Positions 9,362 through 62,665 of a stretch of DNA of 64,000 nt are shown here, piece by piece. The notes beneath the pieces are model-generated. The model saw nothing but the letters and a program-made list of their open reading frames with translations, did not search any database and was not told where the DNA came from. Numbering within the stretch: the first letter of the stretch is position 1; each line of letters starts with the position of its first letter. The stretch spans positions 32,001 to 96,000 of the forward strand of contig CM000435.1 of NCBI GenBank assembly GCA_000165345.1, in the 5' to 3' direction. A program made the position numbers and the translations under genes.

Positions 9362-9780
9362 TTTACCGTTGATTATCTCAAATTTCAGCTATTATGAGAA
9401 AAATTAATGTTGCAATTTGCTTAATTACAACTGGTAACGAATTATCGATGTTTCCTTATTTTGCTTTTTTTTCGGAGACAGACTTATTTTAACAGGCGCC
9501 AATTTTAATATTATTAATATTAATAATTATTAGACAGGCCAAATATAACTTCTGTCCGCATTATTACATTAATTTTTATGTCAAAAGTTATAATAAATCA
9601 GCGCCAATCTTTTCCTAATATGACCTTAAAATTCACTTTTGAAGACGTATCATTTATTTATTATAGAATATATTGGGGCCTAGACGGGAAAAATGGTAAA
9701 GCAAATGTAGCTATAGTATAGAGGCATGAAAAAACTGAGAAAATTTATTACAAGTATTTAAAAAATGTTAAGAGATCTAA

Positions 9781-10794
9781 TTAGTTATTTTTGTGTGTTT
9801 TGTCATTAAATATAAATTTTGAAAGTTTGTATACCAAATTTAATCTAGAAAACACTTTATATACTATTAATGTCAATGTAATACTTAATAAGATGGATCC
9901 AATTATTTGGAAGAATAGTATTGGGAGCCCAAATTTGAAATATTCGAGTTCTAGGAACATTTAATTAGTGACCGTGATACCCCTTGACATTGGTTTTAGA
10001 ACTTACCTATATTTAGCAAGATGTTCTTAGATTGTATTTGCTTATCATAAGATACATTCTTTAACTTTGCGACCACTTTAAAAGTCACAAATTGTTGACC
10101 TTGTTGGTCATAACTTAGAAATTTTTGCTATTATTGTTAATTAGTTTTTGTATTTAAAATATAAAAACTTACTTTTTGGCTGTTAAGTAATTCATTATTT
10201 GTGAAAACTAGAGAACTTGGAAGTACTTTATCAAGTATTTTATCTAAAAAACTTTGAGATATATTATATTCTGAAGTTCATTAATTTGAAAATAATTTAT
10301 TAATTTTGTATTTTGCTATATAAACTCACTTTCTTCAGAAATTAATGGGATTATATTAAATTCTCCTTGAGGATCCTATAATATTTGTGAATTCTCTCAT
10401 TTCAAAACAAATTAACCATCTCCACTCGAGAACTTACTGGCCCAGCAGAAAAGCATTCAAATTGGTATCTTCCATCAATGAGATCTTTCTTATTCACATT
10501 TATTATTAATGGATAATCTTATATTCAAGAATGAATTGTCAAGTTACACAATAATTGATCAATATTACTTACTTATATTCATTTTAATGCCATAATATGG
10601 CTTTCCTGGCAAAATTATAATATTATTCTCCATACCAGACTTAGAAAAGAAACCCAGTAATTATCATGTTTAACAATTAATGTTTTGTCTTATTATTATC
10701 TTACCTTGTCCAATGGCCTTTCAGACTTGGAAAATAAGACCAAAAAGGTGCTAATTAAGAATAGGTAAGCAGAGAACCTGCTTATAACTTTCAT
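9781..10794 (-). CDS. Seven-exon gene for a ~223-aa small type-I membrane protein (signal peptide plus one C-terminal TM); family unassigned; absent from the ORF track
   Basis: Hand-spliced on the minus strand: join(9781..9950, 10007..10127, 10173..10270, 10330..10375, 10438..10517, 10573..10639, 10705..10794). Every donor is GTAAG(T/A) or GTGAGT and every acceptor is YAG. Introns are 45-65 nt and the phase is continuous. Protein: MKVISRFSAYLFLISTFLVLFSKSERPLDK|SGMENNIIILPGKPYYGIKMNI|NYPLIINVNKKDLIDGRYQFECFSAGP|DPQGEFNIIPLISEE|KYNISQSFLDKILDKVLPSSLVFTNNELLNSQK|QKFLSYDQQGQQFVTFKVVAKLKNVSYDKQIQSKNILLNI|ELEYFKFGLPILFFQIIGSILLSITLTLIVYKVFSRL...KNN*. Confidence 0.45.
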
Positions 10795-11046
10795 TATGAA
10801 ATCCTAATTTAACTTTGGTTACTTTTTTGTATCTATTCTTCAGGTATATATTATTCCAATTTTTTTGTGTGGCTATAATTTGTGTGTTTTCCTAACAAAT
10901 ATACCGTTATAGGGGGAAAAAAAATACCGGTATTTAATCAATTGTGTGAAACCGAAATTTTTTTTATTTAAATATATTTTTAACCCAAATCAATCGAAAA
11001 AATTAAATATATAGGAAATCCAACAGGTAAAAAAATTCACTATGAA

Positions 11047-60584: not shown

Positions 60585-60659
60585 TATGAATTATAAATAA
60601 ATAATTAGTAGAATTATATATGTATATGTATGAATATATATATACATCAATTTAGTTCC

Positions 60660-61817
60660 TTAAAGGAACTTGAATGTAACCTGTTCGAGTATTTTCTCTT
60701 GAACAATATTGTCAATGTTGTTGGAGGTGTTGTCAATAGAGGTAACTGAGGATAGTTTTCCAATAGTTTTGACAAGATAACTTTGAATTTCTCTAATATT
60801 GTCAATGTTGTTATGATATTTTGAGTTTAGGATTCCCTTGCTTCTTTGTTGAAATCTTTGTATGTGTTCTTCAATATCTTGAATATATATTAGAAAAGTA
60901 CTTAGATTTGCATTTTCAAGATTTGCAAGAGATTGGATTCTTTCAAACAATGAGGGGGTAATATGAACTCCTTCTAGAATGATACTTTTTTCCTTATTAA
61001 CAAAATTCTTAATAATTTCATAAATATAATCTTCTATAATTGATGATTGTATTAGGTATCCAAGCACAATAGACGATTCTGAATATTGATCCTTATATTT
61101 TTGTGTTTGTTGAGTAGTGGTATATTTATGTACTTCATAAGTTGAACAATTAAGAGCCTTGTTGTGTTTATATTTTTCTGTAGATCTCAATACGTGTCTA
61201 ATAGTATCGGTAGAAATAACGCATTTGACTCTTAAAAATGATGCCAAGTAAGAGCTTATAGTGCTTTTTCCACTACCTGAAGTACCTGCTATTAATATAA
61301 TATTAGGTTTAACAGAAAAGTCTGAGAATAAATGAATTAGGCATTTTTTGATTAGATGATTGACTTTTTCAATTATTTCATTTTTTTGGACTTTGTTTTT
61401 CGAACAAGCAAGATATTTTTCAAATTTGCATTGAGATAACGGAAAAGAAATCAAATATGGCAAATTTTTAAAGTAGCAGAATATGCGATTAAGCTGAGAA
61501 AAATTATTATTATTTAGTATTAGATTCTCTAAATAATCCATACAAATCGATAAATCTTTGCCTGTTATTCCAGATAAAATGTATAGTTTACAAACCCAGC
61601 TTCTAGTTAAAATAACATTGTTTTTTAGAATATTATTATTATAAGAATTTTTGCAATATTTATTAGGATCTAGAAAACAGCTTTCTATATCCTTCAGAGT
61701 TAGGTTGCTTTTGGGATTGTGATGATCAAAAAACTTAAACTCATTTGAATGATTTTCGGTACTGTCCTCTTCAAATATACCCACAATTTCCCAGTCAACT
61801 TGATGGTATTTTGCCAT
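60660..61817 (-). CDS. P-loop NTPase, probably a small-molecule kinase of the 2-phosphoglycerate-kinase-like family
   Basis: 385-aa ORF with an ATG start. Walker A (IILIAGTSGSGKSTIS) is followed closely by VISTDTIRHVLRS, as in the 2-PGK-like AAA_33/zeta-toxin-type kinases. The N-terminal ~160 aa are of unrecognised family. Confidence 0.5.
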   Translation of the reverse strand: MAKYHQVDWEIVGIFEEDSTENHSNEFKFFDHHNPKSNLTLKDIESCFLDPNKYCKNSYNNNILKNNVILTRSWVCKLYILSGITGKDLSICMDYLENLILNNNNFSQLNRIFCYFKNLPYLISFPLSQCKFEKYLACSKNKVQKNEIIEKVNHLIKKCLIHLFSDFSVKPNIILIAGTSGSGKSTISSYLASFLRVKCVISTDTIRHVLRSTEKYKHNKALNCSTYEVHKYTTTQQTQKYKDQYSESSIVLGYLIQSSIIEDYIYEIIKNFVNKEKSIILEGVHITPSLFERIQSLANLENANLSTFLIYIQDIEEHIQRFQQRSKGILNSKYHNNIDNIREIQSYLVKTIGKLSSVTSIDNTSNNIDNIVQEKILEQVTFKFL

Positions 61818-62665
61818 GAAACTACGTAAAGTACCTTGCTAAAAGATTTAGTTATATTTAATTGTTTGAATTAGAGCGGCTCCTCCTTTTATTTATTTAA
61901 TATTGTTTATATATTACAATTAATTCGGAATCCCATTAAATGAGAGTATTGCGACTATTAGGGGGGGAAAATAGGATAAGAGCTGATTATTAATCATACA
62001 TTTCATGACAAAATAGAATAACTTCTCGTAATTATTCGATAGTATGTTGTATTTTAGCAAATTCAGAAATATTTATTATTTTTTTTAGCTCAATTTGGAT
62101 TATAGAAAAAAAAGACAACCCGCCAAAATTTGGAAAATTAATATTGCATGCAGAATGTGAATAGCCAGAATAACAGAAATATTGGAAGTTATCATATTTT
62201 TAATATCCAGATTGTTTTTTAAATAAATTTCAGTAGGTATGACGGAATTAAAAATTAAAATCTGGTTCAAAATCTGAACAATTTTGAGTGTTAATAGTTA
62301 TATTATTTCATTAAATATATATATATATATATATATATTTTTTTTTTTTTTTTTGACTCAATTTATACCAAAAAAAGCCAAACACTATTGCTTGCATGCA
62401 ATCTCCACGTAATATTACAAGTTGCATGGCATAATAATCCACATAGTGCATGTTTCTCGCAACCCCACTTATGTAGAATTGACTTAGAAAAAAAGTACCG
62501 AGTCATTTTTTTTTCTCACTTGATTTTAATAGTAATATAATAAATTTCAAAAGTTTCAAATCTATTTCAACAGGAAATAGCAATCAAAGCAAGAGAAGTT
62601 TGTTTTGTTACTAGTTTAATACAGGGAAGATTAAAATTAACAATTGCCGGAATTTTGTGGTCAAA

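Follow-up and report, generated by a model that had tools for sequence, protein, structure and literature searches.

A short GC-rich motif that recurs upstream of genes in a 64,000-nucleotide stretch of Cryptosporidium parvum IOWA II chromosome 7 (referred to here as the window) is, judging from its sequence and distribution, a real, functional, and already known promoter element. It is very probably an E2F-type cis-regulatory element of Cryptosporidium promoters, putatively bound by E2F/DP. Because the same motif has already been published as the C. parvum ‘E2F’ promoter motif, the proposal of an E2F/DP-like element in the initial annotation of this DNA amounts to a correct rediscovery rather than a novel result. 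The enrichment of the motif is strong and restricted to upstream DNA, its position relative to the ATG is fixed, and it is under purifying selection in at least five species. The source organism had also been correctly deduced as Cryptosporidium: the window matches the telomere-to-telomere CpBGF assembly save for one homopolymer base, its identity to chromosome CP141124.1 being 100% over the 20.6 kb compared, and the orthologues of its genes returned by homologue searches bear the name Cryptosporidium.

Intergenic DNA, as delimited by public gene models, makes up 24.7% of the window and has a GC content of 27%. Expected counts were derived from an analytic Markov-1 model for each partition (intergenic and genic) and evaluated with Poisson tests, and 100 shuffles served as a control for exact GGCGCCAAA and for SGCGCSAAA. 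The exact GGCGCCAAA has six strand matches at five loci against 0.07 expected, with none of the 100 shuffles reaching six, while SGCGCSAAA occurs 8 times against 0.15 expected, every time in intergenic DNA. Under the Markov-1 model, TTGGCGS is found 13 times in intergenic DNA (0.71 expected) and twice in genic DNA (1.79 expected; partition binomial p = 8e-7), GGCGCC 7 times (0.21) and once (0.60), and TTTGGCGCC 6 times (0.03) and not at all (0.06), respectively. Across these forms of the motif, intergenic counts exceed expectation 18-fold to more than 200-fold, whereas genic counts are close to it (about 1-fold), with Poisson p values of 1e-8 to 1e-13 against the partition-specific models; coding and intergenic densities thus remain unequal after correction for composition. 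The consensus of 17 aligned intergenic sites, (A/T)TTTGGCGCC, agrees with the canonical E2F site TTTSSCGC over nine positions, T-run included, and has an SGCGCS-type core with an invariant C at position 3 and an invariant G at position 4. Reading of the aligned sites showed that the T-run has no consistent direction with respect to the gene concerned. In an unbiased ranking of intergenic k-mers, TTTGGCGCC comes second, behind TGCATGCA.

The sites are concentrated immediately upstream of genes, with 18 of 19 intergenic sites lying 20-400 bp upstream of an ATG, compared with 61% of intergenic bases (p = 0.001), at a median distance of 140 bp. The site at 55765, 838 bp from the next ATG, falls outside the range of 25-330 bp first given. 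Site-bearing spacers are found among divergent (8/10) and tandem (7/14) gene pairs and not among convergent ones (0/9), and both the upstream location and the depletion elsewhere persist after composition correction, in agreement with an E2F cis-element. Fifteen of the 24 promoter-bearing intergenic regions, of all functional kinds, carry a site (17 by a hand tally that includes three sites with a GGCGGG core), such that the motif marks about two thirds of window promoters whatever the gene function. The genes served, VIT1, TM9SF, FKBP, ATG16, GLE1, and RPS14 among others, are functionally unrelated, and Rad21, a classical E2F target, has weak GGCGGG variants only. This is not the pattern of a classical E2F-Rb cell-cycle regulon, and the suggestion of a specific targeting of ribosomal, nucleolar, and cell-cycle genes was an over-reading.

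All twelve coordinates initially listed have a GC-rich core flanked by T/A and are intergenic on public gene models, although they do not represent a single uniform word. The nonamer in the title of that entry is exact at only five loci, the sites at 22463, 52488, and 62118 represent the variant GGCGG/CCGCC, and that at 55765 contains one additional G. The statement that every copy is intergenic is true of SGCGCSAAA and of the listed sites and breaks down for the looser family, which has coding members at 58355 (GGCGCCAA) and 51426 (TTTGGCGGGA). The list was also incomplete, lacking sites at 2569, 2955, 9600, 19144, and 44014 as well as GGCGGG-type sites at 34328, 34702, and 53176.

Proceeding along the window, a (CG)5 run that fits the SGCGCS core (2569-2578; a weak or uncertain member) lies between the divergent RING and sortilin genes at a distance of 101 bp from the RING ATG, and a TTGGCGG half-site (2955-2961, plus strand) has the sortilin ATG 164 bp downstream. 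RPS14 (Ribosomal_S11) has two minus-strand sites, GGCGCCAATTTT (9495-9506), 134 bp before its ATG, and AGCGCCAA (9600-9607), 240 bp upstream of the gene. The divergent Methyltransf_4/WD promoter bears TTTGGCGCC (15081-15089, plus strand) about 55 bp from the WD ATG, kept in C. canis and C. felis, and the divergent promoter of dynamitin and a 352-aa gene bears TTTCCCGCCC (complement GGGCGGGAAA; 19144-19153, plus strand), within which GGCGGGAA is invariant in five species. The FKBP site TGGCGCCAAA (21352-21361, minus strand; ATG 83 bp downstream) reads TTGGCGCC in C. ubiquitum, C. canis, and C. felis and GGCGCCAA in C. bovis, at 67-122 bp from the ATG. The weak variant AGGCGGCAAG (complement TTGCCGCC; 22463-22472, minus strand), 123 bp upstream of the Ran ATG, lies in a highly conserved block, with TTGCCGCC kept in C. 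ubiquitum and C. canis and CCGCC invariant in all five species. The divergent promoter of RNase PH and a 303-aa gene, a spacer of 250 bp, contains GGCGCCAAAAA (23640-23650, minus strand), where TTGGCGCCTAA is the longest invariant run of the five-species alignment. Of the UTP25 site TTTGGCGCG (27104-27112, plus strand; ATG 140 bp downstream), C. canis, C. felis, and C. bovis keep a GCGCC core at a distance of 138-202 bp, and C. ubiquitum has no pattern match. The VIT1/amine-oxidase divergent promoter bears GCGCGCCAAAAA (28296-28307, minus strand), 198 bp from the VIT1 ATG.

Further along, two weak GGCGGG-type members occur near Rad21, CCCGCCC (34328-34334) in the kinase/Rad21 divergent region and GGCGGGC (34702-34708) 293 bp before the Rad21 ATG. 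The GLE1 site TTCCCGCCT (complement GGCGGGAA; 44014-44022, plus strand; ATG 249 bp downstream) keeps its position in C. canis and C. bovis, and TTTGGCGCC (45692-45700, plus strand), 381 bp upstream of the RPL18A ATG, has an E2F-like counterpart at 350-392 bp in the same two species. The perfect palindrome reported at 46392 was verified as TTTGGCGCCAAA (46392-46403), 235 bp upstream of the EMP70/TM9SF ATG; C. canis has the same 12-mer and C. bovis TTGGCGCCAAC. The divergent promoter of a 374-aa gene and ATG16, a spacer of 203 bp, carries GCCCGCCAAAAC (complement TTTTGGCGGGC; 52488-52499, minus strand), which is kept in C. canis and replaced by GGCGCGC or GGCGCC in C. felis and C. bovis. A weak CCCGCCT (complement TTTAGGCGGG; 53176-53182) lies 415 bp upstream of the HSP70 ATG. 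The outlying TTTGGGCGCC (55765-55774, plus strand), with the hydrolase ATG 838 bp downstream and the HSP70 stop about 210 bp before it, is matched at the same position in C. canis by TTGGCGCCCAAA. The divergent promoter of a 385-aa and a 347-aa gene bears ACCCGCCAAAAT (complement TTTTGGCGGGT; 62118-62129, minus strand); C. canis has TTTTGGCGGGC there, 280 bp from the 385-aa ATG, and the 385-aa gene is unannotated in C. felis. Each of the two copies in coding DNA seems to serve the gene that follows it. TTTGGCGGGA (51426-51435, plus strand) is located in coding sequence of the 374-aa gene and precedes the GRASP ATG by 542 bp; in other species, GGCGCCAAA follows directly on the stop codon of the 374-aa gene. 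GGCGCCAA (58355-58362, minus strand) falls within the hydrolase CDS, at its 3′ end, and precedes the ATG of a 579-aa gene by 490 bp; in C. bovis, TTGGCGCC lies 321 bp upstream of this gene, in the intergenic spacer.

Orthologous loci were compared in C. parvum, C. ubiquitum, C. canis, C. felis, and C. bovis. Since whole-spacer MAFFT alignments misplace shifted sites, such as that of C. bovis in the Ran/FKBP spacer, each region was also scored separately for the presence of a site and compared with expectation. Most C. parvum spacers with a site have one in the other four species as well, with few lineage-specific gains or losses and similar distances to the ATG, and regions that lack a site in C. 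parvum likewise tend to lack one in the orthologous loci, the chance expectation being 0.03-0.3 sites per region. The DNA around the sites is just 5-22% invariant across species; no invariant run exceeds TTGGCGCCTAA and GGCGGGAA in length in their alignments, which are 16% and 8% invariant overall. This retention of orthologous sites, the mark of purifying selection expected of a cis-element, is weaker in C. serpentis of the gastric clade, which was limited to a single locus because searches with UTP25 and RNase PH homologues returned no gastric-clade orthologue of the Ran region (C. muris, C. andersoni, C. serpentis). At that locus strict sites are rare and GCGC cores are differently flanked, with GGCGCT/AGCGCC cores and very few TTGGCGCC sites. 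A scan of the whole window with Rfam at gathering thresholds and with ARAGORN revealed no RNA genes hidden in long spacers or conserved blocks.

The published C. parvum upstream motif sets contain the same motif under the name ‘E2F’, which is described as the most over-represented upstream motif of this organism (PMC3734150; PMC4117751) and whose family comprises 5′-TGGCGCCA-3′, [A/T][C/G]GCGC[G/C][A/T], and GGCGGG (PMC3734150, PMC4117751, PMC12246861, bioRxiv 10.1101/2025.01.17.633476). An E2F-like motif in C. parvum upstream regions has been known since at least 2013, with earlier reports cited there going back to 2003, and it was found upstream of 161 of 200 co-expression clusters (PMC4117751). 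The motif is also enriched in C. parvum ATAC-seq (open-chromatin) peaks and is reported to dominate those of sporozoites. [quoted passage not shown] The elements described there share with ours the organism, the GGCGCC core and GGCGGG variant, the restriction to upstream regions, and the presence at ribosomal-protein genes and bidirectional promoters. Nothing essential differs, and the window adds a local count and a four-species positional footprint, the latter not met with in the published descriptions of the C. parvum E2F motif that we consulted.

Relative to the canonical site of animals and plants (e.g., TTTCGCGC, TTTGGCGGG, TTTCCCGCC), given as TTTSSCGC in PMC3734150, which cites Zheng et al. 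(1999) for the structure and Ramirez-Parra et al. (2003) for an Arabidopsis survey, the motif has the same T-run followed by an SSCGCS core, the same partial or full palindromy, and the same placement near promoters in either orientation. It differs in a strong preference for the GGCGCC core and in standing at about two thirds of promoters instead of marking a cell-cycle regulon; moreover, the Rb-family pocket protein of the canonical system is not reported for the Cryptosporidium genome, PMC3734150 describing no pRb orthologue. The other dominant promoter word, the ApiAP2 motif TGCATGCA (AP2_1), is likewise palindromic, exclusively intergenic (11 against 0.12 expected), and an invariant footprint within the same spacers. 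It is distinguished by its sequence, by its assignment to AP2 domains through protein-binding microarrays (PMC4117751), and by its reported absence from the sporozoite ATAC-seq peaks that E2F motifs dominate.

Our literature search retrieved no EMSA, ChIP, or DAP-seq work on Cryptosporidium E2F/DP, so the case for E2F/DP as the binding protein is drawn from motif similarity, and a 2025 review describes functional validation as missing for most regulatory components. This leaves some room for a genuine conserved promoter element bound by another factor, with AP2, Myb, and zinc-finger proteins as candidates and the resemblance to TTTSSCGC a coincidence. The occurrence of the motif at most promoters irrespective of gene function, unlike classical E2F regulons, is in line with such a factor, as is the report that E2F gene expression profiles do not follow those of ribosomal-protein genes (PMC3734150). 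We nevertheless regard it as unlikely, given that coincidence would have to account for a match over nine positions and that the motif dominates in precisely the one apicomplexan genus reported to keep E2F/DP; in addition, the motifs preferred by AP2 domains on protein-binding microarrays (TGCAT, CACACA, G-box) do not include an E2F-like one (PMC4117751).

Considerably less probable still is a protein-independent structural or core-promoter signal, in which GC-rich islands would set nucleosome-free regions or transcription start sites. Although the sites do form GC islands in spacers of 27% GC and fall inside published open-chromatin peaks, their conservation is base-specific, the 11-nt TTGGCGCCTAA being invariant in five species that include C. 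canis and C. felis, with spacers of 36-44% GC, and other GC-rich words are less enriched in the k-mer ranking. The likelihood of chance, a compositional artefact, or remnants of a dispersed repeat is negligible: its sole support is that absolute counts in a single 64-kb window are small, and it is opposed by the positional conservation of the sites across species. A compositional artefact was ruled out by the shuffles and the partition-specific Markov models, and a dispersed-repeat origin because the copies share no flanking sequence other than the T-run.

With an E2F-type element as the preferred reading, a TTTGGCGCC site (or its variants TTTGGCGGG and TTTCCCGCC), placed some 50-250 bp before the start codon and often present as a single copy between two divergent genes, would most likely be bound by winged-helix E2F/DP heterodimers encoded by the two E2F and two DP genes. 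The bound complex would hold the promoter open and activate transcription to one side or to both, chiefly in sporozoites and in the asexual stages; we infer both E2F/DP as the binder and its activating role. The regulatory logic would be unlike that of textbook E2F, since the motif extends beyond genes of the cell cycle and of replication and no homologue of Rb has been reported.

The biological addition is small, the motif having long been described in C. parvum and lately tied to open chromatin. The cross-species footprint, in which individual sites are held in place in at least five species, is of modest added value, as are the two coding-region copies. Raw sequence alone nevertheless sufficed to recover a real regulatory word and to infer the organism correctly. 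More tentatively, the E2F-like site could be a fixed-position, often bidirectional, general promoter-opening element of most genes of the intestinal species, the coding-embedded copies at 58355 and 51426 included, and not a cell-cycle switch, with a preferred sequence that drifted in the gastric clade. If this is true, E2F/DP would act as a housekeeping activator independent of Rb, with a specificity that co-evolved within the genus.

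By sequence, location and conservation, the GC-rich word that recurs upstream of genes in the window is defined as an E2F-type cis-regulatory element of promoters. At each of the 12 coordinates listed in the initial annotation the reported sequence is present and intergenic. Across the window, GGCGCCAAA occurs 6 times (at 5 loci, one being a palindrome), where dinucleotide shuffles predict 0.07, and SGCGCSAAA occurs 8 times against 0.15 expected. The intergenic partition comprises 15,782 bp (24.7% of the window) with 27% GC; since genic DNA is richer, at 35% GC, composition disfavours intergenic placement of the motif. 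Under partition-specific Markov-1 models, GGCGCC was observed 7 times in intergenic DNA (0.21 expected) and once in genic DNA (0.60), TTGGCGS 13 times (0.71) and twice (1.79), and TTTGGCGCC 6 times (0.03) and never (0.06), respectively. Densities thus remain unequal after composition correction (partition binomial p = 8e-7 for TTGGCGS), and the claim of a motif is clearly left unrefuted by this comparison. When all intergenic 7-mers and 8-mers were ranked without bias, GGCGCCA(A) came second among the non-low-complexity words, behind TGCATGCA.

A broad search pattern, which accepts TTSSCGS or its complement as well as SGCGCS, gives 19 intergenic and 11 genic sites in the window. At least one such site is found in 8 of 10 divergent and 7 of 14 tandem spacers; the 9 convergent (3'-3') spacers, which total only 1.5 kb, have none. 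The suggested positional enrichment was borne out, with 18 of the 19 intergenic sites falling 20-400 bp upstream of an ATG, compared with 61% of intergenic bases (p = 0.001), at a median distance of 140 bp. Alignment of the cores of 17 sites gave the consensus (A/T)TTTGGCGCC, with an invariant central CG, a T-run on one side and a weakly A-rich other side, which is the E2F site in its asymmetric form, TTTSSCGC. In our reading of the aligned sites, the T-run is not consistently oriented with respect to the gene served. Beyond consensus and T-run the flanks of these 17 sites are unrelated, ruling out a dispersed repeat as the origin of the copies. A (CG)5 run at 2569-2578, in the divergent spacer between RING and sortilin amid 27% GC intergenic DNA, fits the SGCGCS core and may be a microsatellite rather than an E2F-type site.

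Some details of the initial annotation required correction. All 12 sites carry a GC-rich core, but those at 22463, 52488 and 62118 are of the GGCGG/CCGCC variant, reportedly handled in the literature as a second E2F-like motif (PMC3734150), and the site at 55765 contains one additional G, with the next ATG 838 bp away. Sites at 2955, 9600, 19144 and 44014 had been overlooked, as had GGCGGG-type sites at 34328, 34702 and 53176. An exclusively intergenic location holds for the listed sites but not for the window, where two good copies lie within coding DNA: GGCGCCAA at 58355, in a hydrolase CDS 80-90 bp before the stop codon, with the ATG of a gene for a 579-aa protein 490 bp downstream, and TTTGGCGGGA at 51426, in a gene for a 374-aa protein, with the GRASP ATG 542 bp downstream. 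The spacers downstream of both are without a strict site in C. parvum and have one in other species: in C. canis, C. felis and C. bovis a site directly follows the 374-aa stop codon in the GRASP spacer, its sequence being GGCGCCAAA in the first two species, and the spacer of the 579-aa gene contains TTGGCGCC in C. bovis. The coding-embedded copies plausibly serve the next gene downstream.

Gene models for the whole window were taken from the public annotation and are consistent with Pfam assignments, which back ten of the original labels: RPS14 (Ribosomal_S11), the WD gene (WDR55-type WD repeats), FKBP (FKBP_C), Ran (Ras/Arf), exosome (RNase PH), UTP25 (UTP25), VIT1 (VIT1), RPL18A (Ribosomal_L18A), TM9SF (EMP70) and Atg16-like (ATG16). 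An exact-protein look-up with Ran returned nine syntenic loci, including GCA_035232765.1 (CP141124.1), the telomere-to-telomere C. parvum IOWA II 'CpBGF' genome (PMC12179316), to which window positions 11704-32342 are 100% identical. The sole difference found from that assembly is in the homopolymer at 37016-37030, longer by a single A in the window: A15, compared with A14 in the CpBGF record (L012) and A16 in another C. parvum assembly (L013). The names of the orthologues likewise point to Cryptosporidium, confirming the genus.

With UTP25 and the 374-aa protein as anchors, syntenic 20-kb loci were retrieved through their orthologues in C. ubiquitum, C. canis, C. felis, C. bovis and C. serpentis, and gene order is identical across all loci compared. 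Around Ran, the majority of sites seen in C. parvum are matched at near-equal ATG distance in most other species, against a chance expectation of 0.03-0.3 sites per spacer. C. parvum, C. ubiquitum, C. canis, C. felis and C. bovis all carry TTGGCGCCTAA 98-156 bp upstream of RNase PH, TTGGCGCC (GGCGCCAA in C. bovis) 67-122 bp upstream of FKBP and GGCGGGAA 188-294 bp upstream of dynamitin, while TTGCCGCC lies 128-132 bp upstream of Ran in C. parvum, C. ubiquitum and C. canis. Spacers free of sites in C. parvum (e.g. that between dynamitin and the 146-aa gene, and all convergent ones) are site-free in the other species too. Spacer multiple alignments are 5-22% invariant overall, the invariant runs being the motif together with further known promoter words of Cryptosporidium (ACATGCA, GCACACAA, ATGTGGGG). 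The palindrome at 46392-46403 is fully conserved in C. canis and almost so in C. bovis. The gastric clade is represented by a single 21-kb C. serpentis locus (L022, GCA_051169045.1), with only 3 strict E2F-pattern matches, compared with 14 over the corresponding part of C. parvum; the C. serpentis spacers have 9 times the GCGC density of the genes, with different flanks and GGCGCT/AGCGCC-type cores (e.g. TAGGCGCTA, TTTAGCGCGAAATAGGCGCTC). At this one locus, the core difference may reflect drift of the preferred site.

Other words accompany the motif. TGCATGCA, the known ApiAP2 'AP2_1' motif, has 11 intergenic copies (0.12 expected) and 1 genic copy, an enrichment exceeding that of the E2F word, and forms an invariant footprint in the spacers of RNase PH and VIT1, beside their E2F sites (e.g. 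23690-23700, 28530-28600). TGCCGGTA, ranked third among non-low-complexity intergenic 8-mers, occurs five times, always intergenic (8097-8104, 22489-22496, 28519-28526, 37081-37088 and 44377-44384; 0.32 expected), and its copies upstream of Ran and between VIT1 and amine-oxidase are retained in 3-4 further species (ATGCCGGTA). This word, absent from the 2013 motif paper's main text, may be an undescribed promoter word. Upstream of Ran (ATG 22342, minus strand), a block of ~110 bp at ~22355-22510 shows almost no variation among five species and includes a GTACC...GGTAC inverted repeat, TTGCCGCC, ATGTGGGTGT and, directly before the ATG, GTAA...TTTTAG, which looks like a 5'UTR intron; the block has no Rfam or tRNA match.

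As no direct binding or mutagenesis experiment on the motif was found in the literature, we infer E2F/DP as the binding factor from the match to the E2F site over 9 positions of the core alignment, published gene content and published retention in this genus alone. C. parvum reportedly has two E2F and two DP genes, listed under cpbgf_ identifiers, those of the assembly matching the window (PMC12179316), and Cryptosporidium is described as the only apicomplexan genus keeping the family (PMC3734150). AP2 domains reportedly bind other words in protein-binding microarrays (PMC4117751). In sporozoite ATAC-seq, E2F motifs are reported to dominate regulatory peaks, more than half of these being bidirectional promoters. 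E2F/DP winged-helix heterodimers would likely bind the element near the transcription start, keeping chromatin open and driving one or both flanking genes. The motif behaved as an E2F cis-element in those tests that could be run, the observation is confirmed with minor corrections, and the E2F interpretation is supported. The ribosomal, nucleolar and cell-cycle genes were, however, over-read as specific targets, since about two thirds of promoters carry the motif whatever the gene function, unlike a classical Rb-controlled cell-cycle regulon, Rad21 carries weak variants only, and no orthologue of pRb is reported (PMC3734150).

Comparison with published C. parvum upstream motifs identified the same motif, 5'-TGGCGCCA-3' or [A/T][C/G]GCGC[G/C][A/T], with a published variant GGCGGG. 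According to later papers it was first noticed in 2003 on chromosome 6; in published accounts no other upstream motif of C. parvum is as abundantly over-represented (PMC3734150, PMC4117751), and it lies upstream of 161 of 200 co-expression clusters, ribosomal-protein genes included (PMC4117751). The motif is therefore already known rather than new, and the present analysis makes two small additions, namely the positional footprint of the motif across species and the two copies embedded in coding DNA.
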